DNA from: a virus
IMG/VR virus record: IMGVR_UViG_3300045988_144418
Span: 1-64,000 of that record
Strand: one strand, 5' to 3'
Length of the DNA stretch: 64,000 nucleotides
The number at the start of each line of letters is the position of its first letter. Position 1 is the first letter of the stretch. The translations under genes were made by a program, and so were the position numbers. Under the pieces are notes generated by a model. The model saw only the letters and a list, made by a program, of their open reading frames with translations. It searched no databases and was not told where the DNA came from. Positions 2,610-54,885 of the stretch are shown here, piece after piece.

Positions 2610-3182
2610 TTAGTCCTTTAATGCAGTATCCTGATTTATTTCACCGATACCAAATTCCTTGTAGTCACGACCGATGAAGACAGTGTAGGTTCTTGAAGCA
2701 TAAGGCCTGTCCCAGAACTGATAATTGTATCTGAATGTATGCTGGTGTTCCGTAAGATATATAATTTCCTCTCGAGGGTTGCCGTCACTATGGTATTTGT
2801 AGAGCTCACAGTTCTTTTCCAGTATCTTACAGTATTCCTCTATGGCCTGTTGTCTGTTGGAGGTTACACCATCTTCCTTGAACAGAGGTATTGTCTTTAG
2901 CATTCGTGTGTCACTCCAGATAATGTTTCTACTGTTGGCCGCAAGCATGACTTCTCCTATGGACTTTAGGCCAACATCATTGCATCTACCGAAGTTGATA
3001 TAGACATGATTGTAGCCTATCACTTCATAGGATACATTTCCCTTGCGAAGTTCTGAGAGCAGAACTGTAAGATTACCGCCAACGTGCATTTCTGCAATGG
3101 AAAAGAAGTCAGTGGCATAAGCCGAGATTGATAAACAAAATGCTGCAATAGTAGCAGCGATGATTGTAATAAATCTTTTCAT
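2610..3182 (-). CDS. secreted or periplasmic protein with N-terminal signal peptide (190 aa)
   Basis: N-terminus MKRFITIIAATIAAFCLSISAYA|TD has a basic n-region, a hydrophobic core and an AxA-like cleavage site. The gene has its own strong promoter copy. Confidence 0.6.
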   Translation of the reverse strand: MKRFITIIAATIAAFCLSISAYATDFFSIAEMHVGGNLTVLLSELRKGNVSYEVIGYNHVYINFGRCNDVGLKSIGEVMLAANSRNIIWSDTRMLKTIPLFKEDGVTSNRQQAIEEYCKILEKNCELYKYHSDGNPREEIIYLTEHQHTFRYNYQFWDRPYASRTYTVFIGRDYKEFGIGEINQDTALKD

Positions 3183-3234
3183 AATACAAAATTATTTAAT
3201 GTAACAAACAAAGGCAACCAACCTGATTGCAGAA

Positions 3235-3266
3235 CAAAGGTAGTCATTTTTCTTGAATATCCAAGG
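3235..3266 (-). promoter_or_regulatory. promoter (-33 TTGG / -7 TACCTTTG) for 2610..3182
   Basis: The minus-strand sequence TTCCTTGGATATTCAAGAAAAATGACTACCTTTG is nearly identical to 58929-58960 and similar to 50005-50039. Confidence 0.55.
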
Positions 3267-3388
3267 AATTTATTAGGAATTCTTCAAAACTTTTTAATTA
3301 AGCAGTACACCTCTATTTGGGTGGTTTTATGCCCCGATTTGAGGGGTTTTACTAAATCGATTTACCCTTTTACTGAGAATACAAAACA

Positions 3389-4213
3389 CTATAAAATTAA
3401 GCCTTTTTCTTCACACCCCGATTTGGGGGTTTTATCCTGTACCTGTTTGAAAATCTCAAATTGAATGTGTGTAACAGGCTTTTGTCCGCGAGTTATAGGA
3501 CGACCAGGAACTTCTCTATAAAGAGGTGTAAAAGTAAAATTCAACACTGTCTGACAATCCATAAATGCTAATCTGGAAGTATCCAACCGTTGTCTTTTTA
3601 TAACATCCCAAGTTTCGTTTGTGTTTATATGTAGCAGTTCCCTTAATTTTTCTATGGAAATTACAATTTTTCCTTGCTGTTTACCTAAAGAATAGTATTT
3701 ACTGATAAATTCATACACATCCATAGTTGTTGTAGAATTCAACTTACATACGGATGGGATATGAACATTACGATAATTGTCTTTAATCACTTCTAAAAAG
3801 AATCTAACGGATTCAAGACCCATAACAATTTCATTTTTAGTTCCATCTGTTTCATCCCATTTAATTTTAATAAATGGGAAAAATATACGACCACGAGTCT
3901 TAGAACTTCCCTTTTCAAGAAAATAAGCATTTTTAGCCAAGGATAATAAAGCCTTTTTATAAGAAGTTCTAATTTTATTACGCACACTTAATAGACGGAT
4001 ATTCACCTTACAATGAAAATAACAATAGGAATCCAAATTAAGCTCCTTTTTCAGGAACTTGATATAGGTTTCCCAGTCTTCATCAAGTTTAGTGAAGTCT
4101 ATTTTACCCCAAAATGGCTGTAACTGTTGAGCAACAAGATACAAGCATTTTCGTTGAGCAACGTTCCATTCTGAAAGATCCACTTCCATAGGAAATCTTA
4201 CTGTTTCTATCAT
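3389..4213 (-). CDS. Rep_3-like (winged-helix, iteron-binding) replication initiator
   Basis: The 274-aa protein follows the Rep_3 pattern: SEWNVAQRKCLYLVAQQL, SYKKALLSLAKNAYF, IKWDETDG..IVMGLESVRFFLEV, TTTMDVYEFISKYYSLGKQQGKIVISIEKLRELL, and the C-terminal ...PVTHIQFEI. Tandem iterons lie directly upstream. Confidence 0.6.
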   Translation of the reverse strand: MIETVRFPMEVDLSEWNVAQRKCLYLVAQQLQPFWGKIDFTKLDEDWETYIKFLKKELNLDSYCYFHCKVNIRLLSVRNKIRTSYKKALLSLAKNAYFLEKGSSKTRGRIFFPFIKIKWDETDGTKNEIVMGLESVRFFLEVIKDNYRNVHIPSVCKLNSTTTMDVYEFISKYYSLGKQQGKIVISIEKLRELLHINTNETWDVIKRQRLDTSRLAFMDCQTVLNFTFTPLYREVPGRPITRGQKPVTHIQFEIFKQVQDKTPKSGCEEKGLIL

Positions 4214-4232
4214 AATTTCATCTATTTTACGG

Positions 4233-4264
4233 CAAATATAAATGTTTTATAGGTAAAGAACAAA
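4233..4264 (-). promoter_or_regulatory. promoter for the rep gene (-33 TTTG, 20-nt spacer, -7 TATATTTG)
   Basis: The minus strand reads AAATTTGTTCTTTACCTATAAAACATTTATATTTGCCG about 20 nt upstream of the ATG. It is adjacent to the iterons, a typical autoregulatory arrangement. Confidence 0.5.
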
Positions 4265-4294
4265 TTTATTATTCCGCACTTGGTAATTAGAAAT

Positions 4295-4373
4295 ATAGTT
4301 CATTGTGCAGAAAGTTATAGTTCATTGTGCAGAAAGTTATAGTTCATTGTGCAGAAAGTTATAGTTCATTGTT
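4295..4373. repeat. iterons: 3.5 tandem copies of the 22-bp unit ATAGTTCATTGTGCAGAAAGTT
   Basis: Perfect copies at 4295-4316, 4317-4338 and 4339-4360, with a partial copy at 4361-4373. The units are contiguous with no spacers and sit next to the rep promoter. Confidence 0.9.
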
Positions 4374-4420
4374 TCACACAACTTCCTGTGCCACAGGACA
4401 TTATCGGGGTTTTGCGGATG

Positions 4421-4515
4421 GGGTTATAGTATAGGGTTATAGCTTTGAATGGTTATATTTGATAGTATTACTCCTAAAGTCGTAATACATATCATAACCA
4501 TTCTTTTGGTTATAG
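4421..4515. repeat. five dispersed copies of a (G/T)GGTTATA(G/T) box, one inverted
   Basis: Copies at 4421-4429, 4434-4442, 4450-4458, 4494-4500 (inverted) and 4507-4515. They may be a second set of origin or operator sites. Confidence 0.6.
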
Positions 4516-4565
4516 TTTGAAGGGAAATATAGAAAAGGGAACCGAAACGCCACATCTGAAATAGA

Positions 4566-4628
4566 GGGCTTTGAAAGGGAGACTCCTCCCTATGGTCGGA
4601 GGTCTTGTCTTCTCCCTTTCTACCGCCC
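4566..4628 (+). other. long imperfect hairpin (possible structured RNA or origin element)
   Basis: GGGC (4566-69) pairs with GCCC (4625-28). GAAAGGGAGA (4573-82) pairs with TCTCCCTTTC (4611-20). CCTCC (4585-89) pairs with GGAGG (4598-4602). Confidence 0.45.
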
Positions 4629-4633
4629 AGTAG

Positions 4634-4660
4634 AGGGTCGACGGAGCGACCCTATTTTCT
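4634..4660 (+). terminator. intrinsic-terminator-like hairpin AGGGTCG-acggag-CGACCCT followed by ATTTTCTT
   Basis: A 7-bp GC-rich stem, a 6-nt loop and a U-rich tail immediately after the long hairpin. Confidence 0.45.
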
Positions 4661-4744
4661 TATAGGAGATTTCTCTATGAAAGACGTTATACAATCAGCG
4701 TTTGAAATGGATTAAATTCATGATCAGGTGTATAGATCAACGTT

Positions 4745-4827
4745 AGGTATATAGCATAAGGAAGTGCGCTCTCTGCCTTACGATATTTTGGCCTTGAGAA
4801 GTGGTGGTTCAATTCCACCTATACTGC
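4745..4827 (+). other. tRNA-like element with canonical T-arm and acceptor but no canonical anticodon arm
   Basis: T-arm GGTGG-TTCAATT-CCACC (4803-4819). Acceptor 3' strand TATACTG pairs with AGGTATA (4745-51) in 6 of 7 positions. U8 is present, as is the D-arm GCAT-aaggaa-GTGC. The central arm is only TCTC/GAGA plus GCC/GGC with a 12-nt loop. No CCA is encoded. Confidence 0.25.
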
Positions 4828-5065
4828 TAATTTCGGCCTTGTGCCTGTAACGGTTTTATGTTTTTTGAATTGTAATTGGGTAAATTTGTCGGTTTTTAGA
4901 CGATTTAAGTGATGTTTAGTGTTTCTTTAGTGTGGTCTTAGATTTGTGATTGGTTTATTCTTATATTGCGTAGAATTTTAGCTTGCATATCATATTTACG
5001 AAAAATTGAGATTTATCAGTGATTTCAGGGTTTGTAGAGTTCTTTTCTTTTTCGTTTTGTAGTTA

Positions 5066-5108
5066 GTCCACCGTCTGGGAAGTAAGGTTCTCCACGGTGG
5101 ACATTTTA
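5066..5108 (+). terminator. hairpin GTCCACCGT ... ACGGTGGAC followed by ATTTTATAAAAAA
   Basis: A 9-bp stem (5066-5074 with 5094-5102) closes a roughly 350-nt ORF-free stretch just upstream of the next promoter. Confidence 0.4.
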
Positions 5109-5129
5109 TAAAAAATCGTGAAAAGTTCA

Positions 5130-5159
5130 TTGGAAATTATAGAAAGTCCATTATATTTG
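5130..5159 (+). promoter_or_regulatory. promoter (-33 TTGG, -7 TATATTTG)
   Basis: TTCATTGGAAATTATAGAAAGTCCATTATATTTGCAG has the same architecture as the 50009 and 58931 promoters. Confidence 0.5.
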
Positions 5160-5186
5160 CAGTATAGAAAGGTAGAACAATGGCTC

Positions 5187-5215
5187 TTTGGTAAATTTTT
5201 ACTTGTTTATATTTG
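5187..5215 (+). promoter_or_regulatory. second tandem promoter (-33 TTTG, 17-nt spacer, -7 TATATTTG) upstream of 5245
   Basis: TTTG at 5187-5190 and TATATTTG at 5208-5215, 30 nt before the ATG. Confidence 0.4.
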
Positions 5216-5244
5216 TATCATGAAAACTTTTAATTTTTTACGAT

Positions 5245-10655: not shown

Positions 10656-11984
10656 ATGATTATGAGATTCAAGAAATGGCTTGGAATAATGACTCCACAG
10701 GAAAAGCTGGAGGAGTATCACGATCTTAGGAAGAGGCTTGCTCAGATAGAGGATGAGGGTAGGGAGCTTGCACATCAGTTTTCTATTCAGAAGTCCATTG
10801 TTGATAGCATCGGTGAGGGTGTGCCTGATTCCAGAAGAGCTGATGTGCTTGCGAAGCACGCTGACTTCATGAAAGGTCACACAAAGCGTGTCACAGCCTG
10901 TGTTAATGAGCGTGAGAAGATTCTGAAGGGAATTGACGTACTTGTTGAGGAGTGTCAGGAGGTGCGTGATGAGATTGAAAAGGGTCGCAAGTTGAACGGC
11001 TTGATGGAGCTTCGCAAGGCTGGCAGTTTGGATGAACGTCAGTATTTTAATCTTGTTAAGTCAGTGGACGGCAAGCCTGTTCGATACGCTGACATGGTTG
11101 TTATGCGTGAATCAGACGGTAAGATTCTTATTCTGCACCGTGTTGATGATGAGATGTGCCCTACTGGAGAAGTGTGCATTCCTGGAGGCCACGTTGAGCC
11201 TGATGAGGATTTTAAGACAGCGGCCTTGCGTGAGTTTAAGGAGGAAACCAATTTGGATCCTATTGTTTCCAGGGGTATTAGGTATCTTGGCGAACATAAG
11301 GACGAGAATGCACATATTCAGTATTATCAGGTGTACGTAGATGGTGGACAGCCTATTACCGTGGATGCGACGGAGGAGTGTTTTTCTGAATGGATTGACA
11401 TAAGTGAGATTCCGTTGAAGAATTTTATTTTTGATCAGGGTAAGATTGTCCTGAATCTTATGAACAGGATATATAGAATGGATTCTGTTGAGCCGCTTGA
11501 CACTGTTGTCAAGGCTGTTCAGGACGGTCGTATGTCTGTTCAGTGCTTTAAGGAAATCTGTTCCGACATTGTGAAAAAGGCACTGGCCACGGAGAACGCA
11601 GCAGCTGTCATTCCTGAAAGTATGGAGGGTGACGTGAAGAAGCTCACTATGCCTGTTCGTGACCCGATGTGTGGCGTTGAGACGCTTTTGAAGGGGATCA
11701 ACGGTGTTGATGAGGTGGTTGTGAATGGCACGGAGACAATTAAGTTTGTCAAGCCATTGTTCATTCATAGTGTTTCCTATGAGGAAAATCCAGAGACAAA
11801 TAGGCTTGTTCAGTGTGCAGTGAGCTATGTTGGTGAAGATTCTGATATGAGCAAGTTAATTGATGTCTTGCGGAATGGTCTGCGGAATGGTTCGGTGAAT
11901 TTCAGAATTAAGGAGGAGGAATTTATCTCCGTTAATGAGAATGGCACGGACTATGTTGGTGACCCCATCTTTGCTGTTATGTAA
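10656..11984 (+). CDS. Nudix hydrolase domain protein (442 aa) with N-terminal coiled coil and an unknown C-terminal domain
   Basis: Nudix box GGHVEPDEDFKTAALREFKEETNL matches GX5EX7REUXEEXGU. The start is set at the ATG after the upstream stop, although the ORF is open from 10536. Confidence 0.75.
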   Translation: MIMRFKKWLGIMTPQEKLEEYHDLRKRLAQIEDEGRELAHQFSIQKSIVDSIGEGVPDSRRADVLAKHADFMKGHTKRVTACVNEREKILKGIDVLVEECQEVRDEIEKGRKLNGLMELRKAGSLDERQYFNLVKSVDGKPVRYADMVVMRESDGKILILHRVDDEMCPTGEVCIPGGHVEPDEDFKTAALREFKEETNLDPIVSRGIRYLGEHKDENAHIQYYQVYVDGGQPITVDATEECFSEWIDISEIPLKNFIFDQGKIVLNLMNRIYRMDSVEPLDTVVKAVQDGRMSVQCFKEICSDIVKKALATENAAAVIPESMEGDVKKLTMPVRDPMCGVETLLKGINGVDEVVVNGTETIKFVKPLFIHSVSYEENPETNRLVQCAVSYVGEDSDMSKLIDVLRNGLRNGSVNFRIKEEEFISVNENGTDYVGDPIFAVM

Positions 11985-12020
11985 GTTTCTGATTATTTTT
12001 GTCCATAATTATTGACGTGA

Positions 12021-12683
12021 ATGAGTGGAATGAATGACTTCAATTTCTTTCTTCCAGCTGATCTTGTAAAGGCGGAGGATTCAACTCGGTATCCTCGTGG
12101 TGACGAAAGACGCTACGAGAATATGGTGTTTGAAGGAATTGCGAGTGATGATAGCAAGGACTATGAGGGGGAGAGTATGGAGCCGAAAGGCTTTGACTTG
12201 AGTCACTTTCTGAAGCACGGGCTGTTGAATCTTGATCATCTTACCATAAGGGCGAAGGAACTTAAATCCCGATTTTGGATCGGTGAGCCGCTGGAGGCCA
12301 AGATTGTTGACAATAAACTTTGGGTTAAGGGAAAGCTCTGGAAGGACAGCCCTGAGGCAAGGGCGTTCTGGGATAAGTGCATTGAAATGGCTGAGAGTGG
12401 CTCGACACGCAAGCCAGGAATGTCTATTGAGGGGCGTGCTCTGGAACGTGACCCTAAGAACCCGAAGCACATTCTTAAGGCTATAATCAATAACATAGCG
12501 ATGACGTTCACTCCTGTGAACTTCAATTCCTATATTGAGATTGCAAAGGGCATTCAATCTCAGGATTTTTATCCTACTGATGGCTCAATGGCAATCAGTG
12601 ATGATGTGATGCTGGAGATTGTGCGTGGCGGCAGGAAGTTTATCATTAAATCAGATTTTACAACGGTGGAAGAAAGCATCTAA
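12021..12683 (+). CDS. prohead serine protease (HK97 / S78-like)
   Basis: The pattern FEGIASDDSKDYEGESMEPKGFDL..LLNLDH...IGEP...VKGKL...MSIEG matches the His/Ser arrangement of caudoviral prohead proteases. It lies upstream of the scaffold and capsid genes. Confidence 0.65.
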   Translation: MSGMNDFNFFLPADLVKAEDSTRYPRGDERRYENMVFEGIASDDSKDYEGESMEPKGFDLSHFLKHGLLNLDHLTIRAKELKSRFWIGEPLEAKIVDNKLWVKGKLWKDSPEARAFWDKCIEMAESGSTRKPGMSIEGRALERDPKNPKHILKAIINNIAMTFTPVNFNSYIEIAKGIQSQDFYPTDGSMAISDDVMLEIVRGGRKFIIKSDFTTVEESI

Positions 12684-12728
12684 TTGGCTGCGATTTCAGT
12701 AGAATGTAAACAATAAATTTTTAGAGTT

Positions 12729-13493
12729 ATGTTAGAATTGACAGAAAACCAGAAGAAAGATGAGCTCGTGAAGTCTCTGTTGGACAGTGGCTTTTCTGAG
12801 GAGACCATCGCAGGTTGGATCAACTCTGGTGACATTACCCTGAAGTCTGAGGAAGCCGAGGGTGACGGTGGTGAGGGAGACGAGCCACAGAATGATCCTG
12901 ACAACGGTTCCGAGGGTGACGGTGGTGAGGGAGACCCTGAGGGAGAGAACGACAAGGACAAGAAGGAGAAGTCCGAGGGCTGTGGTGGTGATGGTAAGGA
13001 GGGTGAGGGTACTGACCCTGAACCACCTATTGCCAAGAGCTTTGACAAGGAGGAATTGATGAAGAGTCTTACTTCCGTGCTTGATGAGCGTGATGACGTT
13101 CTGAAGTCCATGGTGGCAGATTCCTTCAAGGATGTTCTCGCAAAAGTTGACGGACTTGCGAAGTCCATTGACGGTCTTGTTGCCAAGATTGATGCAATCG
13201 GTGATCAGGCTCCAGCGTTTAAGTCAGCCGGATTGAATCGTGCGGTGCTTGAGAAGTCCATTGGCGGTGGCGTAAAGGACGACAATGACAAGACCATTCT
13301 CAGTGTCAGCCGTGATCGTGTGGTCGTTAGAGCGCTGATTGAGAAGGCCATTGATGAGGAGAAGGATGAGGCTATTCAGAAGTCACTTCGTGATGAGACC
13401 CTGAACTATCTTATTGATCCTGTTGGTGGTGCAATCGGTGAGACAGCCGCACGCTATATGTATAACAACAAGAACGTGCGTCTTGTGAAATAA
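12729..13493 (+). CDS. scaffolding protein (acidic, helical)
   Basis: Contains an acidic EGDGGEGD repeat region and predicted helical segments. It lies between the protease and the capsid gene. Confidence 0.55.
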   Translation: MLELTENQKKDELVKSLLDSGFSEETIAGWINSGDITLKSEEAEGDGGEGDEPQNDPDNGSEGDGGEGDPEGENDKDKKEKSEGCGGDGKEGEGTDPEPPIAKSFDKEELMKSLTSVLDERDDVLKSMVADSFKDVLAKVDGLAKSIDGLVAKIDAIGDQAPAFKSAGLNRAVLEKSIGGGVKDDNDKTILSVSRDRVVVRALIEKAIDEEKDEAIQKSLRDETLNYLIDPVGGAIGETAARYMYNNKNVRLVK

Positions 13494-43690: not shown

Positions 43691-44350
43691 ATGAATTCCA
43701 CGATTAGGTACATAATTGTTGGTGACAGTGAGACTGGAGGGCTTCCTAATAAGGGCAAACAGGCTTTCTATGACATTGCACTGTGTGAATTTGCCTTTGT
43801 CGTTATAGATATTCAGGAAATGAAAGTGGTGGAGGAATGGAGTACACTCTTTAGACCCTATAAGGACAATCTTGAGTATAACCCCCAGGCACTTGAGGTC
43901 AATGGTCTTACGGTTGAACAGTTGCAGAAAAGCGGTGATGACCTGAAGAACATCTATAAGGAAATGATCATGTTGTTTAAGAAGTATAAGAATCCTCGTA
44001 TAGGAGCGGTACTTGCAGGACATAATTTTCAGCCGTTTGATATGCCTTTTCTCACTAATATGTTTGAGTTTTGCGGTGATAGCATCTGGAATTATGTCAC
44101 GTTCGTGGAGGACACCATGAAGCTGGCTTGGTATCGTGCCAAGGAGCAGGAAAATTACAAGCTCGGAACGTGCTGTCGTATGGAGGGTGTTGATTTGGTT
44201 AACGCTCATCGTGCGCTTGCTGACACAAAGGCGAACGCCCTGTTGCTTTTGAAATACATTTCCTATATGCGTGGCTCTGGAGAGGGTTCGAGCGTTGCGA
44301 TTCCAAGAATGAAGCCGTCTTCCTTTAGAGAGACCTTTCAACTTGTGTAG
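43691..44350 (+). CDS. DEDDh 3'-5' exonuclease (DnaQ / Pol III epsilon-like)
   Basis: ExoI IVGDSETGGL, ExoII AGHNFQPFDMPFL, ExoIII HRALADTKAN. Confidence 0.75.
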   Translation: MNSTIRYIIVGDSETGGLPNKGKQAFYDIALCEFAFVVIDIQEMKVVEEWSTLFRPYKDNLEYNPQALEVNGLTVEQLQKSGDDLKNIYKEMIMLFKKYKNPRIGAVLAGHNFQPFDMPFLTNMFEFCGDSIWNYVTFVEDTMKLAWYRAKEQENYKLGTCCRMEGVDLVNAHRALADTKANALLLLKYISYMRGSGEGSSVAIPRMKPSSFRETFQLV

Positions 44351-46452
44351 TGATGATTGAGTTTAATGAGAATAACAGTCTTTCTTTTCGGCAGCTGGAT
44401 AGTATTATAGACACCACAACGAGAATAGTGCAGAATCTCCCTGTAAAAGCCATAAATCAGCTTATGGAGGGGTATAGGGGGGATCAGGATGCTATGTTGT
44501 CAGAGATGTTTCGTCAGACAGAGAATGTTCTGAAGTTGAACACTACATTGGAAACTGAACGTCTTTCCTATGTCGATCAGCTTATTGAGAGCATGGATGA
44601 GTCCTTGAAGATAATGTCATACAATTACTTCAAGACTACAATGCTTCCTAATTTTAGACAGGGGTGGAGAAATCTTGAGTGGGGTAATATGATTCAGCTG
44701 TACCCGAATAGTGCTTATCTTGCGGCTCGTTCTCATGGGAAGTGCTTTTTGGCTGGAACTCACATCTTGATGGCTGATTGGACAGTGAAGAATGTGGAGG
44801 ACATCTATCCTGGGATGGAGGTGATGGGTATGGACTTTACCCCAAGAAAGGTTTTCACACGGCATATTGGTCGGTCACAGATGTTTACGGTGCACCAGGA
44901 GAATGGCATTTCCTATACCGTGAATAGATTCCACATTCTCTGCCTATGGGATACAAAGAGGAAACACTATGTTGAGGTTCCGATGGGAAATTTTCTGAAA
45001 TATCCTCAAGAAAAACAGAATAGGTTTAGAGGGTACAGAGTGTTTTCGAGCGACAACCCTATACTGGAATATTCTCCTATAGCGGTTGAACCGTATGGTG
45101 ATGGATCCTACTATGGTTTTGCCTGTGACGGTGATCATAAGTTTCTTCTGGAGGACAATACTGTTGTTCATAATTCGTATGAATTTTGTATGGGGCTTCC
45201 TCTGTGGAGGATGTACTCCTATCGTAGACCAAATTTTATGAAGCCTGATATTCCGGACAATAGGAATAGAAAGGAAACTTGCATTATAACCAACACGGAG
45301 ACACTCGGTAAGGAGCATCTGGATAAGATTAAGGAGGAGATTCATACCAATGAAGCACTTTCAGCGGTGCTTAATCCGAACGGCAAGGCTTCGCTTGGAG
45401 CTACTGGCTTTGAGTGTGAGAATGGATCCAAACTGCATCTTAGAGGGAAGGACGGATTCATTCGAGGTCTTCACGTGGGTGCGGCTGTGTCTGATGACCT
45501 CCCTGATGATAGCTCCATCTATAGTCTGGAGCAGAGAGAGAAGTTGAGAGACCTGTTTAAGGGTGCTATCACCCCTATTGTAGAGCCGTATGGATATAAT
45601 ATCGTGGATGGCACACCGTATCAGGCACAGGATCTTTATTATGAGTTGAAGCAGGATCCGAAATTTATGGTGTTTGAGTATCCAGCCATATTTCCTGACG
45701 GCAGACTTTTGGCACCTGATCGTTTTACGTTTGACAAGTTGATGGAGGAAAAGAAGTCCGTGGGTACGCTTGTGTTTAGCCGTGAGTATCTTGTTGTTCC
45801 TATTTCTGACGATTCCACCATTTTTCCTATGGAGATATTAATGCGAAGCACGATAGGAATGGAGAATGTGCGACTTGTAGATAATATTGAATCGTTTCCA
45901 TTCAAGTTGTCCAGAGTGGTTGTAGGGTGTGATTTTGCCGTGTCAGGAAATGTGGGTGCTGACTACACTTGTTATACGGTATGGGGGAAGGATTTGAATG
46001 GTTCCTATTATCTTCTGTACATCTATCGGGAAAAAGGTTTGTCACATAATGAGCAGATAAACAAGATAGAGTACTTGAACACGGTGTTTAAGCCGAATGA
46101 GATTGTGGTGGAGAATAACGGTTTTCAGTCCATTCTTGCTGATATGTGTGTACAGAGAGGAATCAAAAATATATATCCGTTTACCACTACTTCAGGAAAC
46201 AAGAAGGACTTGCGAACAGGGTGGGCGTCGCTTGCAGCTCTATTTGAGAGAGGTGATATACGATGTCCGTATCATCCTGACACACGACAGAGGATAGACA
46301 CTATGTTTGGGGAGTTTACATCTATTGCGTTTCGTTCTGATAAAGGTACACTGGAATCCATTAGCGGTCACGATGACACAGTATCATCCTCGTTTATGGC
46401 AATAAATAGATTACGTGAATCAGCTGTTCAGATAAAGGTTGATGCAGTATAA
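44350..46452 (+). CDS. terL: terminase large subunit, interrupted by a mini-intein in the Walker A motif
   Basis: After removal of the intein, Walker A reads AARSHGK|SYEF. Walker B-like GAAVSDDLPDD. Nuclease-domain acidic motifs VVGCDFAVSG, IVVENNGFQ and GHDDTVSS. The start is GTG 44350 or ATG 44353. Confidence 0.75.
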   Translation: MMIEFNENNSLSFRQLDSIIDTTTRIVQNLPVKAINQLMEGYRGDQDAMLSEMFRQTENVLKLNTTLETERLSYVDQLIESMDESLKIMSYNYFKTTMLPNFRQGWRNLEWGNMIQLYPNSAYLAARSHGKCFLAGTHILMADWTVKNVEDIYPGMEVMGMDFTPRKVFTRHIGRSQMFTVHQENGISYTVNRFHILCLWDTKRKHYVEVPMGNFLKYPQEKQNRFRGYRVFSSDNPILEYSPIAVEPYGDGSYYGFACDGDHKFLLEDNTVVHNSYEFCMGLPLWRMYSYRRPNFMKPDIPDNRNRKETCIITNTETLGKEHLDKIKEEIHTNEALSAVLNPNGKASLGATGFECENGSKLHLRGKDGFIRGLHVGAAVSDDLPDDSSIYSLEQREKLRDLFKGAITPIVEPYGYNIVDGTPYQAQDLYYELKQDPKFMVFEYPAIFPDGRLLAPDRFTFDKLMEEKKSVGTLVFSREYLVVPISDDSTIFPMEILMRSTIGMENVRLVDNIESFPFKLSRVVVGCDFAVSGNVGADYTCYTVWGKDLNGSYYLLYIYREKGLSHNEQINKIEYLNTVFKPNEIVVENNGFQSILADMCVQRGIKNIYPFTTTSGNKKDLRTGWASLAALFERGDIRCPYHPDTRQRIDTMFGEFTSIAFRSDKGTLESISGHDDTVSSSFMAINRLRESAVQIKVDAV
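44743..45174 (+). mobile_element. class-1-type mini-intein (144 aa, no homing endonuclease domain) within terL
   Basis: It begins CFLAGTHILMADW (Cys1, Hint block A) right after GK of the P-loop. It ends LLEDNTVVHN, followed by Ser+1, which restores GKS. Confidence 0.75.
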
Positions 46453-46472: not shown

Positions 46473-48011
46473 ATGCAGACAAAGAAATTTGATGCGGTCT
46501 TGAGTCCGACATTTGTTGAAGAAATGCTTCGGCTCGCATATTCCAACAAGACATTCGCAGGGCTTGTGGTTGAGAATGTTAATGTAAGCAATTTTCCTCG
46601 TGAGCTTGGTGCGTGTAAGGCAATGCTCAAGGTACTGGCTGATAACTATCGTAATGGAGTATTTGCCACCTTGGGAATGGTTGAGATGGCCTTTCCGAAG
46701 AGTGATGAAGTAGCCAAGAAGATTTCTGAAATTAAGAATATGCCTGTTCCTCCCTATGATGGGATGGTTAAGCAGTTGGAAACATTCATTCGTCGGCAGA
46801 CATTTGTGGCTGTGCAGCATGAAGTGAGTGATATGTATAATGAGGGTAAGCCTGACGAAGCGATGGACTTGTTGGGGCGCAGGATGTCTGAAATACTGTC
46901 CTTTTCTTTGAAGCAGGGTGCAAAGGGGAAATTTTCCAGAATATATAGGGACTTTGTGCGTAACATAGCGATTGCACAGCAGAAGCAGGATGATGAGGTT
47001 AAGCGTCCAAAGATTCCTCTTGGCATCACGTCTTTGGATGATTTAACTGACGGTGGTGTTCCTCGGCAGGATACTGTTCTTTGGATTATGCGTTCCGGAG
47101 TGGGAAAATCCACGGCCTTGAAATATCATGCTTGGTACAATACGTCAATATCACATAATCACTGTCTTCACATCCAGCTGGAGGGTGGTGAGCAGGAGGC
47201 AGTGGTGAAGTTTGATCAGATGCTTGCACAGACAACCTATGCAAAGGTTTTGCGAGGTGATATTACGTCTGACACTCAGAAGCGTGTGCAGTCACTTATC
47301 AGAAGGGCTGTTACGGTGAATTCTGATATAGACGTGTATGCTTCCGAGGAGATGATGGAAATGACGATAGCTGACATTGTCAAGGTGGTGGAGGATTATT
47401 ATCTGGAGTATGGCTATTATCCTGATCTGATAACAGTTGATTCCATTGATCTTTTGCTTACAGGGCAGAACAGCAAGATAGACTATGATCCTAACTTTAT
47501 TAAGTATAGACTACAGAAGTGTGCACAGCGGTTAAAGGATCTTGCCACGAAGTATGATTGTGTCGTGATGACAGCCACTCAGACCTGTGATGTTCCTATG
47601 GAACTATGGAACGATCCATCTCGTGTCATAACACGTCAGCACACAGAGGGTGATAGAACACTGGTCAAGCCGTTTTCCTTTGTGTTTACAGGTAATGTAA
47701 CCATTGAGGAGGGTGCTCAGAACGTTATGCGTATATTCTGTGATAAGTTTCGAAATTATCGAAATAACGGAATAATTGTGAAGATACCGACCAACTATGA
47801 GAACGGCTTCTTTTACGACCTAAAACGTTCCGTAAAGGAGGAACAGGTACTTGATATGAACGCTATGCTGAAGATGGATGGCGCTCCTACACGCAGAAGA
47901 CGCACAAGTGATGGCAGACAGACGGAGACAAAGACGGTTGAGGTGTCAAGCGGTGTGTTCGTGACTCAGAATGTTGAGAAGAAGAAAGTGCCGCAGAAAA
48001 GGGGTGTCTGA
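46473..48011 (+). CDS. DnaB-like replicative helicase
   Basis: Walker A IMRSGVGKST, Walker B LITVDSIDLL, and MTATQT. The protein is 512 aa and the primase gene follows. Confidence 0.6.
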   Translation: MQTKKFDAVLSPTFVEEMLRLAYSNKTFAGLVVENVNVSNFPRELGACKAMLKVLADNYRNGVFATLGMVEMAFPKSDEVAKKISEIKNMPVPPYDGMVKQLETFIRRQTFVAVQHEVSDMYNEGKPDEAMDLLGRRMSEILSFSLKQGAKGKFSRIYRDFVRNIAIAQQKQDDEVKRPKIPLGITSLDDLTDGGVPRQDTVLWIMRSGVGKSTALKYHAWYNTSISHNHCLHIQLEGGEQEAVVKFDQMLAQTTYAKVLRGDITSDTQKRVQSLIRRAVTVNSDIDVYASEEMMEMTIADIVKVVEDYYLEYGYYPDLITVDSIDLLLTGQNSKIDYDPNFIKYRLQKCAQRLKDLATKYDCVVMTATQTCDVPMELWNDPSRVITRQHTEGDRTLVKPFSFVFTGNVTIEEGAQNVMRIFCDKFRNYRNNGIIVKIPTNYENGFFYDLKRSVKEEQVLDMNAMLKMDGAPTRRRRTSDGRQTETKTVEVSSGVFVTQNVEKKKVPQKRGV

Positions 48012-49045
48012 TGAAGTACGATAAGGAGAATATTATTGACGAGCTTGGGCTTGTTCCGTTCGGTTCTCAGGGGTGGTTATCGAACAAGGAGATGGTCTGT
48101 CCGTTTTGTGGTAAGTCCGGAAAATGGGGTGTTATATTTAATGATACTGGAGGGGCGACATTTCATTGCTGGAAGTGTCCACGTAAGACTTCTTTGTATG
48201 AATTTCTTAAAAAGATAGGTAGAACGGATCTTGCAAGGGTTACATACACGGCCAAGCCTGATGAGGTGTGCCCAAGGATAGGTGAGGAGCAGACGGAGGA
48301 ATCACAGTGGATGACCTCCATGGAGTTGCAGCCTTTGGAGTTGCAGCCTGTTGCGCTTCCATTGCGACTGAAACCACTTGTGGGGGATGAGTATCTTGAA
48401 AGCAGGGGGTTCAATGACTATCACTATAGACTATTTGAACCATCCTACACAAATACACCACTGGAGCCGAAGTTGAAAAACTATATTGTGTTTAAGATGA
48501 AGATGAACGGTGTGTGTGTGGCTTGGTGGGCGAGAAGTCGTTATTCAAAGGAATGGCATAAGGAGAATCTGGAACTTTATAAGCAGCATAAGGCTGAGCT
48601 TGTGCTTCGGTATAGGAACTCAGAAAGCAATTTTCAGGACTTGCTTGGTGGTTATGATCAACTTGTTGAGGGTGTTACACAGACAGTGATTCTGGTGGAA
48701 GGCATTTTTGATATGATTAATATCACGAACATTCTTGGACTTGCTGATGTGAATGATGTTAAGTGCTGTTTTACATTCGGTAATAGCATAGGAAAGGGAC
48801 AGATAGAGTCATTGTTGAGGAAAAAAGTTAGGAATATAGTACTTTTGTATGATGATGGGACAATAGACGAAAGTCGTGAAGCGGCCTTGCGGATGAGGGA
48901 ACTGTTTGATACTGTGATGGTGGCGGCTATACGACGCAGAGGTGTTGATCCTGGAAACATAGACATAGACTATCTGATGGAGGTGTTGGAGTCAGCGTGT
49001 GATTCTCTAACATTCTCTTACAATAGGCTTGAAATGAAGATTTGA
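48011..49045 (+). CDS. DNA primase (zinc finger plus TOPRIM)
   Basis: Zinc finger CPFCGKSGKW...FHCWKCPRK. TOPRIM VILVEGIFDMINI and VLLYDDG. Confidence 0.65.
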   Translation: MKYDKENIIDELGLVPFGSQGWLSNKEMVCPFCGKSGKWGVIFNDTGGATFHCWKCPRKTSLYEFLKKIGRTDLARVTYTAKPDEVCPRIGEEQTEESQWMTSMELQPLELQPVALPLRLKPLVGDEYLESRGFNDYHYRLFEPSYTNTPLEPKLKNYIVFKMKMNGVCVAWWARSRYSKEWHKENLELYKQHKAELVLRYRNSESNFQDLLGGYDQLVEGVTQTVILVEGIFDMINITNILGLADVNDVKCCFTFGNSIGKGQIESLLRKKVRNIVLLYDDGTIDESREAALRMRELFDTVMVAAIRRRGVDPGNIDIDYLMEVLESACDSLTFSYNRLEMKI

Positions 49046-50678: not shown

Positions 50679-51413
50679 ATGGTTACGGATTCAGGAACCA
50701 TAATTCTTATCAAGGGGGTCAGTGGAAGCGGTAAATCCACAAGGGTTTATTGCTTCCTTGATTTCCTGGAAAGCATTGGAATGAAACTGAAGCCATATCA
50801 GTTTGTGAATATACTTGGACAGACACAGGAGATAGGCTTGTATTCAGAGGAGTTGAATATGCTTTTTCTGGGAAAGTTCTATGACGACAATGGTGTTCGT
50901 AGGTGGCAGGGGTTGGATGCTGTTACAGGGCGATTGCACACGGCTGAGGGTCTTTCCTATTTCCTGAAGTGGGCTGGTCAGCGGAAGTTGAATGTTGTGC
51001 TGGAGGGGGCTGGAACGTCCGTGACGTGGCGATTGCGTCCGATGGAGATATGTGCCGAGTATGAGTATCTAAATATTCTCTATTTGGTCTATACGTTCAA
51101 ACTGGAGCAGTATGATGACTATATCAGGAGAATAGAGTATCGCTCGGGCAAGGCTCCGAAAAGCGACGCTATGTGGCGGAAGCGCAAGGGGTTTGAATCA
51201 GACTATACTCAGACTGTTGCGGAAGCGAAGGACTTGAATGCAGCAGGAGCGGACATTGTCATCAAGTACAATCTTTTCGATGTTGAAGCATGGGATCTCG
51301 GTGTAAGCATTATGCAGTATTTCGGTCTTGACGAGTTGTGCGATGAGTTCAAGCTGTTTGTGGAGGGTGGTGGTTATATTGGGCAGAATTCCTATGAAAA
51401 CATTGGTAGATGA
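50679..51413 (+). CDS. P-loop kinase-like protein (candidate nucleotide or 5-hmdU DNA kinase)
   Basis: Walker A IKGVSGSGKST. The gene sits within the nucleotide-metabolism cluster. The substrate is unknown. Confidence 0.45.
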   Translation: MVTDSGTIILIKGVSGSGKSTRVYCFLDFLESIGMKLKPYQFVNILGQTQEIGLYSEELNMLFLGKFYDDNGVRRWQGLDAVTGRLHTAEGLSYFLKWAGQRKLNVVLEGAGTSVTWRLRPMEICAEYEYLNILYLVYTFKLEQYDDYIRRIEYRSGKAPKSDAMWRKRKGFESDYTQTVAEAKDLNAAGADIVIKYNLFDVEAWDLGVSIMQYFGLDELCDEFKLFVEGGGYIGQNSYENIGR

Positions 51414-52423
51414 GTAAAATAGTTCCAAATGACAATTTGACGTACCTCTTCTATTGGTGCTGTGAACGAATGAACATATTCTGGAAGCGGTATAATGGAG
51501 AGCAGTATCCATGGACTGATGATGAGATATTACAGCAGTATAAGTTCACAAATGTGTATCGGGTGCTGGATAGGTCAAGTCAGTATATGCTTCGTAACGT
51601 TATCTATAATGGTAAGCAGTATTCTCCGGAGGATATGTTTTTTCGTATTTTACTTTATAAGCATTTTAATCTTCCTGACACGTGGGGTGCCCTGATTAAG
51701 GAGTTTGGTGATATTACATACGACACCGGATGGGAGAACATTGCACGTTTTCTGGATGATAGAGGTAGACAGGACATCACCATCTATTCTAATGCCTTTA
51801 TGTTGACAGGGTGGTTTTATTCTCTTCCGGAGTATGCTAATATTCGTGGGACTTCAAAACATCGTGGATATTTTGAGGTGTTTAAGCGTCGAATTTTTGA
51901 TAATGGTAAGATTGATGCTTTTCTCAGTGCTGCAAGTTTTGAAGAGCTTTTTGGTATGTTTAAGGAGCTTGAACCATTTAGCGACTTCATGTCACAGCAG
52001 TATTGTCTTGACATGAATTATTCCCCTTTATACAACTTTACTGAGAATGACTTTGTGGTTGTCGGCCCTGGAAGTAAAAGGGGGATTCAATTTGCATTTA
52101 AGGGGGATCATAGAGATGACGGTGAAGTTGTTATCAGGTGGATGCAGGAGCACTTTGAGGAACTGATGACAAAGTTCTGTCAGGATTCAGGTATGATTTG
52201 GAATCCATTGCCGTGGGAGCCAGTGCCTACACTGACGAACATTCAAAATTGTTTTTGTGAGCTATCAAAGTATGCTAAATGTATGGGTGTGCAGTTTAAG
52301 AAGAATACTAAAGGTAGGATGAAAAATCTTTATACTACACCAAAATCAGAAATTTCTTATATGTTTCCACGGAAATGGAATGTTAAGATGCCGTTAAAAG
52401 GGCAGATAGAAACTTATAAATAA
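51410..52423 (+). CDS. candidate aGPT-Pplase-like DNA base hypermodification protein (alpha-glutamyl/putrescinyl thymine pyrophosphorylase family)
   Basis: PWTDDEILQQYKFTNVYRVLDR and PFSDFMSQQYCLDMNY..FVVVGPGSKRG resemble my recollection of that family. The assignment has not been verified by a search. Confidence 0.4.
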   Translation: MSKIVPNDNLTYLFYWCCERMNIFWKRYNGEQYPWTDDEILQQYKFTNVYRVLDRSSQYMLRNVIYNGKQYSPEDMFFRILLYKHFNLPDTWGALIKEFGDITYDTGWENIARFLDDRGRQDITIYSNAFMLTGWFYSLPEYANIRGTSKHRGYFEVFKRRIFDNGKIDAFLSAASFEELFGMFKELEPFSDFMSQQYCLDMNYSPLYNFTENDFVVVGPGSKRGIQFAFKGDHRDDGEVVIRWMQEHFEELMTKFCQDSGMIWNPLPWEPVPTLTNIQNCFCELSKYAKCMGVQFKKNTKGRMKNLYTTPKSEISYMFPRKWNVKMPLKGQIETYK

Positions 52424-52432
52424 AAAACGATT

Positions 52433-53560
52433 ATGGATTTTGTATTTGATAATCTTAGTCAGGCTTTTGTTGGGCTTTTAAGGGATCTTAAGGCTTTTGG
52501 TACTTGGACACAGAGGGGAACCAATTCAGCAGGAAATATGTGCTTGGAATTTCCAGAGCCAGTGCTTATAAAGATATATAATCCACTGAATAGATATGTT
52601 TTTGTTCCGGAGCGCAAGTGGAACAAGACGTTGGGGTGGATTGAATCACTCTGGATTGCCAGAGGTGACAACTCGCTTGAAATGCCGTCAGCCTATGTCA
52701 AGAACCTGTTGACGTTCTCCGATGACGGTGAGACAATGCGTGCAGGATACGGCCCGAGGATTCGTGCCTTTGGTGGTCATCTGTGGAAGAAAGGTGTTCG
52801 ATTTGAAGAGGGTTCACCGCTATACTGGATGAAGCAGCAGTATGATTCCAGATATGGGAATGGTACGGTTGCCGTTGTGGATCAGTTGAAATTTGTGATT
52901 GACAAATTTAAGCAGGATCCAACCACGAGGGAGGCTGTCATTACGATTCATGACCCTATGGCTGATGACTTCAGTGGCAAGGAGATTCTTAGAACGAAGG
53001 ACACCCCTTGCACACGCTCCATTCACTTTATGATCGTAGATGGCAAGATGAACTGTTACGTGGATATGAGATCTAATGATCTGTTCTGGGGCTTCAGTGC
53101 TGTCAATGTCTTCAATTTCACTTTGATGCAGGAGTATGTCGCCGCGATGGTGGGTGTGCCTGTGGGGGTATATTATCACAAAGTTGATAATTTGCACATG
53201 TACGAAGGATCTTTGCCTATGGCTAGGAATATTACTTCTATTTATGGAACAATGGCAGCAGTTGAAAAATGGTCTGACTTATATAGTTTTGATGAGGAAT
53301 TAGATTGGCACGGTTATAAACATACATTTACCACATTGGAGGTCTTTGACAATCTAATAGCGTTGCTATCTGAGTTTGAGCGTGGGATGCGTGGTGTCGA
53401 TGATTTGCCGTACAGCAAGGATGAAGCTCTGGAAACAATGAACATGATGTTTGGGGGTGAGCCGATGTTTATGGACTGGGCAAAGGTTATCTATCGTAAG
53501 TGGTCAAAGGACACGACCGTGACATTTGACAATCCGTATCTGACAAAGTTATTTGTCTGA
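52433..53560 (+). CDS. thymidylate synthase-fold enzyme (ThyA family; dUMP hydroxymethylase or thymidylate synthase) with a C-terminal extension of about 110 aa
   Basis: ESLWIARGDN; TPCTRSIHFMIVDGKMNCYVDMRSNDLFWGFSAVNVFNFTLM; DNLHMY. These align with the E. coli ThyA catalytic Cys146, R166, S167, D169, N177, H207 and Y209. Confidence 0.8.
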   Translation: MDFVFDNLSQAFVGLLRDLKAFGTWTQRGTNSAGNMCLEFPEPVLIKIYNPLNRYVFVPERKWNKTLGWIESLWIARGDNSLEMPSAYVKNLLTFSDDGETMRAGYGPRIRAFGGHLWKKGVRFEEGSPLYWMKQQYDSRYGNGTVAVVDQLKFVIDKFKQDPTTREAVITIHDPMADDFSGKEILRTKDTPCTRSIHFMIVDGKMNCYVDMRSNDLFWGFSAVNVFNFTLMQEYVAAMVGVPVGVYYHKVDNLHMYEGSLPMARNITSIYGTMAAVEKWSDLYSFDEELDWHGYKHTFTTLEVFDNLIALLSEFERGMRGVDDLPYSKDEALETMNMMFGGEPMFMDWAKVIYRKWSKDTTVTFDNPYLTKLFV

Positions 53561-54222: not shown

Positions 54223-54885
54223 ATGGATGAAAGAACCCCAGTTGAGATATATGCCTTTGTCGGGGTGATTGGCTCCGGCAAGAGCTATCGGCTTGAGCAG
54301 ATGAAGAGAGAATACAATGGTGTCGGTCAGGTTGTCATTACCGCTGACTTTTCAGATGGTATTCGAGATCTAACACGTCAGCTTTTGGGGTATGGTGCTA
54401 ACTTCGGTGATGTGAATTCACAGGAATATCGTGACTGGAAGGAGAACGTGGCCTGTGTGACAGTTCACAATGGAGCGGTGGTGAATTCTTTCACTGGACG
54501 TGATGTGTTGCGTAATGTGGGAGAGTCCACGAAGTGTATTGCAGGTCAGAACGTGTGGGCGAGATATACGACACAGTCCTTATATTCACGCATAGCGTAT
54601 CAGGCATTTCGCTCTGATTTATGTGTGAGTGGTGTTCGGGTGCTTATAGGGTCAGTGCGATTCAAGTGCGAGGCTCGGAGCATATTTGAGCTCTTTAGCG
54701 ATGTAGCAGCCAATATGGATAGCTTTATGAATCCGTCCTTGCACTTTATATTCTGCGACTATCACTCGTCGAGCTATGATGCGGCAAGTGGTCACGTCAG
54801 TGAGGCACTTGCACAGATCGTGTTGAATACAGGCAAGTACAAGGATGGTGATGATATCACCGAACTGATAGACACAATGGTATGA
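54223..54885 (+). CDS. deoxynucleoside monophosphate kinase (T4 gp1-like)
   Basis: P-loop FVGVIGSGKSYR. FSDGIRDLTRQLLGY and GRDVLRNVGESTKCIAGQNVWARY parallel the T4 gp1 segments PIKDALAYAWG and VRRLMQALGTDL..MYWVKLF, which I am recalling from memory. Confidence 0.5.
   Translation: MDERTPVEIYAFVGVIGSGKSYRLEQMKREYNGVGQVVITADFSDGIRDLTRQLLGYGANFGDVNSQEYRDWKENVACVTVHNGAVVNSFTGRDVLRNVGESTKCIAGQNVWARYTTQSLYSRIAYQAFRSDLCVSGVRVLIGSVRFKCEARSIFELFSDVAANMDSFMNPSLHFIFCDYHSSSYDAASGHVSEALAQIVLNTGKYKDGDDITELIDTMV

Follow-up and report, generated by a model that had tools for sequence, protein, structure and literature searches.

A candidate replication-origin module with a hypervariable Rep_3-type initiator and iteron cassette in an uncultured phage lineage

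We analysed a stretch of 64,000 nucleotides from an uncultured gut phage (IMG/VR record IMGVR_UViG_3300045988_144418, positions 1 to 64,000; hereafter the window), in which the gene for a Rep protein (rep) lies next to a tandem array of 22-bp repeats. The region 3296-5215 is likely to be the replication-origin module of this phage, with Rep and its iterons as the specificity cassette. From the comparison of related genomes we propose that, in a single phage lineage, this cassette has been exchanged or has evolved anew many times, with the rest of the origin kept constant. The feature adds a new, very divergent member to the Rep_3/iteron origin class in an uncultured phage family, and the hypervariable specificity cassette is the most interesting aspect of the locus.

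Results

Iteron type goes with a segment of the second winged-helix domain of Rep

The relatives compared here are metagenomic and IMG/VR contigs of 98-106 kb carrying the same phage (numbered with L). As shown by blastn of the window against loci L001-L015, the flanks of the Rep-iteron island are 89-97% identical, whereas the island itself is 64-83% identical or unalignable. Its only plausible gene is rep, accompanied by three short overlapping open reading frames (ORFs) of 47-64 amino acids. At least seven array types (A-G, Table 1), with units of 22 or 23 bp and 98-100% perfect, were found at the identical position in the relatives, and the copy number ranged from 1.6 to 4.1 across near-identical genomes. 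Copy-number differences between arrays that accompany the same Rep (1.6 vs 3.6) may be real or may come from assembly collapse, and they were not used as evidence.

Within each Rep backbone lineage, the first winged-helix domain (WH1, residues 1-160) was 84-100% identical. Residues 195-245, which lie in the second winged-helix domain (WH2), showed 22-60% identity between array types and at least 88% within a type. Co-variation between array and protein was then examined in 29 genomes, which gave 406 pairs. Identity in residues 195-245 stayed at or above 88% where both genomes share an iteron, and pairs with WH1 identity of at least 84% but clearly different arrays (units 36-64% alike) showed 28-68% identity in this segment. 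An intermediate clade (L093, L099 and L101) has imperfect arrays, with units 68-81% alike and WH2 segments 85-92% identical. In this set of sequences, iteron type goes with WH2 residues 195-245 and not with WH1. This co-variation argues that the 22-bp repeats are the cognate iterons of Rep, as the first-pass annotation of the window had supposed, with binding predicted from the way array type tracks the WH2 segment. A specific protein-DNA pair would be expected to produce such a pattern, which is the strongest evidence here and the best stand-in for a binding assay.

The arrangement recurs in a wider set of relatives. Among 80 portal-anchored IMG/VR relatives, 26 carry a Rep_3-like gene divergent from and upstream of the portal operon, and 22 of these 26 loci have a 21-23-bp array within 400 bp upstream. 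Portal-anchored relatives together contain at least 16 distinct repeat units.

Rep is a divergent Rep_3 initiator

The 274-residue ORF, of which the length was given correctly at first pass, had been described there as Rep_3-patterned, and a search against family profiles had been suggested. In this search, window Rep was borderline on its own, with 22.3 bits against Pfam Rep3_N (PF01051; gathering cut-off 22.4, E 1.8e-4). The assignment was clear at family level, as Rep3_N was matched by 7/7 members (best E 2.8e-9) of the family formed by window Rep and its six homologous clusters, the number found in a collection of 5.8 billion proteins. Rep3_C (PF21205) was matched by 4/7 members; window Rep gave no direct Rep3_C match, and the Rep3_C domain of the relatives aligns to its residues 186-254. 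PHROG 4402, 'replication initiation protein', matched window Rep at 6e-7. A profile search of 1.84 billion representative proteins found only 46 proteins, and a word-indexed protein search with the Rep profile returned nothing past the six close clusters. The nearest outgroups are proteins of ~255 amino acids with Rep3_N and Rep3_C domains, which pass the Rep3_N cut-off; a single outgroup protein gave a match to mini-F RepE (1e-8).

The AlphaFold model of Rep (pLDDT 71, pTM 0.70) contains two winged-helix domains, and its WH2 shows the canonical winged-helix order (helix 161-180, strand 183-186, helix 187-194, helix 202-219, strand 224-232, strand 247-256). When the model was searched with Foldseek in the PDB, the top 43 matches were pi-iteron or RepE complexes with iteron, operator or unwinding-element DNA (pi, 2nra; RepE, 2z9o, 1rep and 8ac8). 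RctB came after pi and RepE; all matches had a probability of at least 0.98, and those to pi and RepE reached 1.00. The segment 195-245 forms, in the model, the third WH2 helix (202-219), the next strand and the wing loop. In the winged-helix fold, the third helix and the wing are the DNA-reading elements. These results firmly place the protein, at family level, as a divergent Rep_3 initiator with WH1 and WH2, and the initial description agrees with both the Rep3_N matches of the family and the pi/RepE fold of the model.

Separately, three large proteins, P0014 (1264 aa), P0021 (1058 aa) and P0047 (976 aa), were found to contain 4-7 repeated matches to Rep residues ~19-60, which are the conserved N-terminal helices of Rep.

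The iteron array lies between a rep promoter and a conserved A+T-rich flank

The perfect tandem 22-bp repeats seen at first pass were recovered by Tandem Repeats Finder with a period of 22, 100% matches and a score of 158. This array is the strongest tandem repeat in the window and the sole one in non-coding DNA, and the type A 22-mer, with up to 3 mismatches allowed, is confined to it (shuffle expectation 0.00). It starts 80 bp upstream of the rep ATG. The repeats had been described as abutting the promoter, but 29 bp separate the end of the array from the -33 element. The ~100-kb contigs behind L009, L010, L011 and L091 begin or end 55-62 nt inside the array, and scaffold_130 of ERZ28572370 appears, by coordinate offset, to start inside it too. 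These contig ends were rejected as physical genome termini, and a break by the assembler at a repeat longer than the k-mer is the most likely cause.

The proposed rep promoter turned out to be an exact minus-strand match to TTTG-N17-23-TAnnTTTG, which we take to be the Bacteroidota -33/-7 consensus. Its -33 TTTG lies at 4264-4261 and its -7 box, TATATTTG, at 4240-4233, 19 nt before the ATG; this -7 box is kept across all Rep types. The pattern has six matches in the window (2.1 expected). Another one, on the plus strand, precedes a rightward operon, of which the first gene downstream starts at 5245, and with these two matches the 1-kb non-coding region is bracketed by divergent host-type promoters. 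A sigma-70 promoter scan (5 sites vs 9.2 expected) was uninformative for Bacteroidota and was replaced by the -33/-7 pattern. No iteron-like inverted operator was found in the type A rep promoter, where the best candidate agreed at 9/12 positions and was equalled by 56-58% of shuffles. The autoregulation of this promoter named at first pass is putative. The rep promoters of types C, D and F carry a palindrome, TGGATATATCCA, at the -33 element, which is unrelated to the iterons. Palindromes of the form TTGGATAT(A)TCCAA were observed downstream of the first rep gene (window 3252-3266), upstream of a second rep gene in L086 and, in types C, D and F, across the -33 element of the rep promoter; a regulator shared within the phage may use them as operators.

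Past the array, the DNA at 4387-4689 is ~95% conserved across Rep types A, B, C, D and F. It comprises a box region, a hairpin and a G+C-rich element with a terminator-like hairpin. The first-pass annotation had counted five GGTTATAG boxes here. Three are exact copies (4422, 4435 and 4508) and the sole three in the window; the remaining two proved to be a variant, GGTTATAT at 4451, and an inverted copy, GGTTATG at 4493-4499. The conserved stretch is 70-75% A+T from ~4434, and a long imperfect hairpin at 4450-4500 (arms 4450-4471 and 4482-4500) folds better than shuffled sequences (z = -2.6). In L090, which has a third Rep backbone, the boxes read GGTAATAG, with one box inverted, and the outer hairpin arms TGGTTAT/ATAACCA of the window are replaced by TGATTGT/ACAATCA (~3140-3200), which amounts to two compensatory changes. 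By analogy with known iteron origins, the stretch 4422-4515 would be the unwinding element. Distant family members share the order of rep, a 21-23-bp array, short A+T-rich repeats and a G+C-rich hairpin element. Iteron plasmids have the same element order, and their Rep also touches one strand of the unwinding element. Papers on this subject are PMC4081077 and PMC10602881. No DnaA box, with up to one mismatch allowed, was found in 4214-5244.

The boundary of the variable island and the conserved flank is marked by the palindrome CCTGTG-C-CACAGG, which had been located at 4385-4397 and extends further on both sides (Table 1). In genomes of types B and C, the arm nearer to the iterons is degenerate, so the function of the palindrome is uncertain. 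The fold of the G+C-rich element was no better than that of shuffles (z = -1.1, single sequence), and its T-run is followed by TTATAGGAG and then by a 12-codon ORF; the element may be a small RNA, a leader or a G+C-rich flank of the origin.

A tRNA-like gene was also observed inside the origin region of the window and of L014, with equivalent sites in L001, L005 and L006. It matches the Rfam tRNA model with 34.8 and 40.1 bits (threshold 29). ARAGORN reported no tRNA in the window or ten relatives; it misses this gene because the anticodon arm carries an insertion of at least 24 nt, which varies in length among relatives. Its acceptor and T stems show, as read by eye, compensatory changes such as GGTGG/CCACC vs GACAG/CTGTC. 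The element could be an intron-containing tRNA or a tRNA-like RNA.

Units of foreign iterons lie downstream of rep

All genomes of the close clade were found to carry, at the 3' end of rep and in the spacer after it, 1-3 units of the active iterons of other types, always in direct orientation (Table 1). The window carries units of types E and D, which are the active upstream array of L090/L091 and the active array of L001, respectively. The first downstream unit commonly extends over the stop codon of rep and codes for a variable C-terminal tail of the protein. In a hand alignment with the active unit of L090, the first E-like unit of the window showed differences at ~5/23 positions. These downstream units may be scars of serial cassette replacement, or decoys or secondary sites.

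In two relatives, a ~1.2-kb indel that lies ~10 kb from the first rep holds a second Rep_3-like gene and, belonging to it, a perfect 22-bp array; L021, L085 and L001 are without this indel. The Rep of L021 is identical to window Rep, so that the genome of the window is probably without a second cassette, of which the site falls outside the window.

Table 1 Features of the candidate origin module, of the surrounding phage genes and of the relatives. Positions refer to the window unless a relative is named; repeat units of types A-G are written in rep orientation.
Feature	Position	Strand	Details
Hypervariable Rep-iteron island	3296-4386		blastn of window vs loci L001-L015
rep gene	3389-4213	minus	274 aa; divergent Rep_3-class initiator; Pfam, PHROG, AlphaFold, Foldseek
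Rep protein parts			WH1 ~ residues 1-160; WH2 ~161-257; specificity-variable segment 195-245
Type A iteron array	4294-4372		3.6 perfect copies of TATAGTTCATTGTGCAGAAAGT; Tandem Repeats Finder
rep promoter, Bacteroidota-type	4233-4264	minus	exact match to TTTG-N17-23-TAnnTTTG
Palindrome TCCTGTG-C-CACAGGA	4384-4398		boundary of variable island and conserved flank
Conserved A+T-rich stretch	4422-4515		candidate DNA-unwinding element; boxes and imperfect long hairpin
G+C-rich structured element	4536-4664	plus	terminator-like hairpin 4634-4653, then T-run
tRNA-like gene	4745-4827	plus	in L014: 1867-1973, minus
Divergent Bacteroidota-type promoter	5187-5215	plus	pattern match; rightward operon (589-aa gene, portal and onwards)
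Heterologous iteron remnants	3306-3375		two E-type units 3306-3352; D-like fragment ~3353-3375
E-like 22-bp unit	3413-3433		overlaps rep 3' end; encodes divergent C-terminal tail of Rep
Downstream foreign iterons, L001	10769-10867		
Downstream foreign iterons, L005	3778-3877		
Downstream foreign iterons, L006	3773-3850		
Downstream foreign iterons, L015	3271-3307		
Downstream foreign iterons, L016	1498-1643		
Iteron type A			AATGAACTATAACTTTCTGCAC; window, L009, L010, L014, L021; downstream units E, D, E
Iteron type B			AATAAAAACCCATCCTTGGACG; L005, L011-L013; downstream units F, A
Iteron type C, 23 bp			TGACAACAACCCAAGGATGGTCG; L006, L015; downstream units B, A (L006); E (L015)
Iteron type D			AAAGGGGTAAAATGAGTCCGAT; L001, L002; downstream units F, A
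Iteron type E			AATAGAGGTGTAAAACCCCCCA; L090, L091; downstream unit B
Iteron type F			AAAACCCCAAGTCAGAAACGAT; L016-L018; downstream units E, D, E
Iteron type G			TGAAACGATTTAGCCCCCGATG; L019 (truncated contig)
Second cassette, L086 (IMGVR_UViG_3300045988_142699)	~11693-12902		array ACTTCCAAAACGATACCTATTA x3.3
Second cassette, L087 (IMGVR_UViG_3300012662_000001)	~11463-12700		array CAGAAACGAGGTGTATTACATA x2.2
RNase_T/DnaQ-like exonuclease	43691-44350		mapped from 219-aa gene of L169
Large terminase subunit	44350-46452	plus	with Hint domain
DnaB-like helicase	46473-48011		
Primase	48011-49045		
5-hmdU DNA kinase beside thymidylate-synthase-like gene	51410-53560	plus	Pfam E 4e-74 (kinase)
DnaE	54882-58364		
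SbcD-like	60763-61788		
RecA	61776-62738		
SbcC-like	starts just after RecA		

The phage encodes its own replisome and resembles the proposed 'Gratiaviridae'

DnaE, a DnaQ-like exonuclease, a DnaB-like helicase, primase, RecA and SbcCD, all listed at first pass, are present in the window. The window and its extensions also contain structural genes (an SU10-like capsid protein, tail, baseplate and a terminase with an intein) and genes for dUTPase, NAD-dependent ligase, an SNF2 helicase, two UvrD helicases, RNase H, a GroEL-like chaperonin, ferritin, a BACON-domain protein, an ECF sigma factor and Dam methylase.

The proposed family 'Gratiaviridae' (Benler et al. 2021) has Bacteroides and Parabacteroides as predicted hosts, and its module, as given in the part of PMC8008677 that describes the family, comprises a DnaG-family primase, a DnaE-family polymerase, SF1 and SF2 helicases, SbcCD and RecA, with ferritin-like genes. 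Compared with that description, the window and its relatives show this gene content. The same section gives the replisome genes but no initiator and no origin. By gene content the phage thus resembles 'Gratiaviridae', and it looks like a virulent myovirus of Bacteroidota of roughly 101-105 kb. The nearest cultured portal proteins, at 35% identity, belong to B. thetaiotaomicron myophages; these portals, the Bacteroidota-type promoters and the BACON-domain protein in a relative are hints to the host.

Several further genes were observed. The Hint domain of the large terminase subunit is intein or homing-endonuclease-associated. The 5-hmdU DNA kinase has a dUTPase and an HD-domain protein nearby, which suggests that the phage DNA contains hypermodified thymidine; in that case Rep would read iterons bearing modified bases. 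This kinase is probably the HipA-like kinase of the 2021 family description. Outside the window, the relatives encode a 181-aa DnaA domain-IV helix-turn-helix protein, the ECF sigma factor, the Dam methylase, the GroEL-like chaperonin and the ferritin (L086 3393-3938, 1982-2596 and 8272-9186; L025 14204-15817 and 20683-21132).

Discussion

The most economical reading of Rep is that of an origin-recognition factor serving the phage's own DnaB, primase and DnaE replisome, much as the O protein does for lambda. A replisome of this kind recognises no origin, so an origin-binding initiator is its complement, not a substitute, and the Rep profile recognised no second initiator in the window. The elements of the window follow the order A+T-rich repeats, iterons, promoter and rep, between two divergent host-type promoters. 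The same order, from A+T-rich repeats to rep, is that of mini-F ori2 and pPS10.

In the mechanism we propose, host RNA polymerase would transcribe rep from its host-type promoter soon after infection, and Rep would use the WH2 recognition helix and wing to bind the 22-bp direct repeats, as the modelled fold and the co-variation suggest. Bound Rep would then open the adjacent A+T-rich GGTTATAG-box stretch, by analogy with RepE, TrfA and pi, and hand the origin to the phage DnaB-like helicase, primase and DnaE polymerase. Later rounds would perhaps be driven by recombination via RecA and SbcCD. It is plausible, if one goes by lambda, SPP1 and T4, that an early theta phase would give way to recombination-dependent replication.

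Several observations weigh against the assignment of 3296-5215 as the origin of this phage. Taken alone, window Rep falls 0.1 bit under the Pfam cut-off, and it had no match among PDB sequences, either as a single sequence or as a profile, in INPHARED (50,697 phage records; megablast and tblastn) or in PLSDB (72,556 plasmids; tblastn). The candidate unwinding stretch is only 70-75% A+T. GC skew was rejected as origin evidence: its cumulative minimum at ~4 kb only mirrors the 4-kb leftward rep operon, and the skew follows the coding strand, being positive again to the left of this operon. More distant family members have no Rep_3 gene at the rep position, so the origin module is not universal, and the second cassette in two relatives means that Rep cassettes can be accessory. 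Many phage ORFs are unannotated, among which a second initiator or a maintenance system could go unrecognised.

As to what drives the diversity, a tentative idea, which we regard as rather unlikely in its full form, is that origin specificity is under strong diversifying selection, arising from conflict between co-infecting relatives or from origin-targeting defences, with the cassettes acting as mobile 'replication identity' modules and the foreign iterons being functional. If so, the downstream iterons would titrate the initiator of a rival, or let the Rep of a rival fire the genome.

A different role for the cassette was put forward at first pass, namely that the element persists as a phage-plasmid or in a carrier state, with Rep and iterons as a low-copy maintenance replicon and the phage replisome and recombination reserved for lytic growth. 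Rep_3 initiators are typical of plasmids, and here a plasmid-type replication module sits in a phage genome; its iterons, rep and further iteron-like units also resemble the layouts oriR-repA-incA of P1 and incB-repE-incC of F. Extrachromosomal mycobacteriophage prophages with RepA-like proteins are known (PMC7157519). The absence of an integrase, which had been noted for the 64 kb, was borne out by the precomputed Pfam annotation covering the window and holds for the rest of the genome of a close relative. However, the suggested look for ParAB in the rest of the genome gave a negative result, as neither ParA, ParB nor other partition or integrase families appeared in the Pfam annotation of the window and of the remaining ~34 kb of relatives, where the larger ORFs were scanned in part and many ORFs are unannotated. 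No repressor-annotated family turned up in the Pfam tables, in which no search aimed at repressors was made. The 185,579 species-representative bacterial genomes of GTDB contained neither Rep nor the portal protein, be it integrated or on a contig of its own; with one genome per species, this set has limited power for such an absence. The units downstream of rep, unlike incA and incC, belong to other types than the upstream array. No second, lytic initiator to switch to was found, and in gene content the phage is like a large myovirus of virulent type, with a polymerase of its own, an ECF sigma factor and a chaperonin besides nucleotide metabolism and probable DNA hypermodification. With an initiator that complements the replisome, the phage-plasmid idea is possible but without positive support, and we judge it improbable.

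It is still less probable that the Rep-iteron cassettes are mobile accessory modules for competition, through incompatibility, decoy titration or nuclease escape, and not the primary origin. The cassette is a sharply bounded variable island, and the optional second cassette with its own iterons (two relatives with it, three without) and the directly oriented foreign iterons in every close-clade genome examined would fit such a role. There are precedents, as ectopic lambda origins block lambda replication (PMC4488673) and PLE RepA/ori modules swap under pressure from an origin-directed nuclease of ICP1 (PMC8263062). On the other hand, all close relatives seen carry at least one Rep cassette at the same locus, and no origin-directed nuclease was identified. 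The remnants do not lie beside the A+T-rich unwinding region and are partly degenerate, which decaying recombination scars would explain equally well. That Rep is only a winged-helix transcription regulator with the repeats as its operator is highly unlikely: Rep_3 proteins also autorepress (such as RepE, whose dimer is bound to its operator in PDB 2z9o) and the array is close upstream of the -33 element, but the model shows both winged-helix domains and a monomer-type initiator fold, direct repeats with a 22-bp period (two helical turns) beside A+T-rich repeats are a hallmark of origins and not of operators, an inverted iteron-like operator was not found, and no other candidate initiator was detected for the phage replisome.

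With Rep supplying origin recognition, a plasmid-type Rep beside a full replisome would be no paradox, and the likely origin and initiator of an abundant group of uncultured ~100-kb Bacteroidota phages would be located. The at least seven Rep/iteron pairs, in near-identical backgrounds and with their differences in one helix and one wing, form a natural specificity series. They make the DNA-recognition code of the Rep_3 WH2 domain directly testable, and they are a source of orthogonal origin/initiator pairs for Bacteroides genetics. If the diversity reflects phage conflict or host defence, the RepA/ori/Odn arms race of Vibrio satellites would extend to gut phages.

Comparison with known systems

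Among iteron plasmids, RepE of mini-F, pi of R6K, RepA of pPS10 and RepM of Acinetobacter share with window Rep the two-winged-helix fold and, at family level, the Pfam domains. Their repeats lie between the A+T-rich repeat region and the rep promoter, as in the window, and plasmid iterons have the 22-bp spacing of the direct repeats seen here; iterons beside genes of the Rep_3 class are tandem direct repeats of about 17-22 bp. The phage system differs in that its Rep is very divergent, borderline on Pfam and without a BLAST-level match in 72,556 plasmids, and in that it sits in a ~100-kb phage with its own helicase, primase and polymerase. Its origin is without a DnaA box and without a detected iteron-like inverted operator, the arrays are short (1.6-4.1 copies) and near-perfect within a genome, and the units downstream of rep are heterologous.

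P1, likewise a large myovirus without chromosomal integration, encodes a winged-helix RepA, and iterons flank the repA gene both upstream and downstream. It differs by its ParAB/parS system, its C1 repressor circuit and its lytic replicon RepL, none of which was detected for the window phage (no targeted repressor search was made), and by downstream units that are cognate to the upstream array.

The closest parallels of the hypervariable specificity cassette are the lambdoid O/ori types and the PLE RepA/ori modules. In the O/ori-lambda systems (also those of phi80, P22 and the Stx phages), a phage initiator likewise acts on about four direct repeats and recruits a helicase, which is predicted here. 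In lambdoid phages, initiator specificity and iteron sequence vary between close relatives. The iterons of Stx phages are treated in PMC7466680. In contrast to the window phage, lambda has an O protein of another family, has its iterons inside the O gene and uses the helicase and polymerase of the host, and lambdoid phages are temperate, with an integrase. In the PLE satellites of Vibrio cholerae, several swaps of the RepA/ori module were inferred, with the rest of the protein and of the element conserved (PMC8263062). Such repeated module swapping in a conserved remainder is the likeness to the proposed phage cassette, with which the SaPI Rep/ori modules are grouped too. The PLE initiator belongs to the RepA_N family and has its variable domain at the N-terminus, the element is a satellite and not a phage, and the selective agent is the Odn nuclease, for which no counterpart was identified for the window phage.

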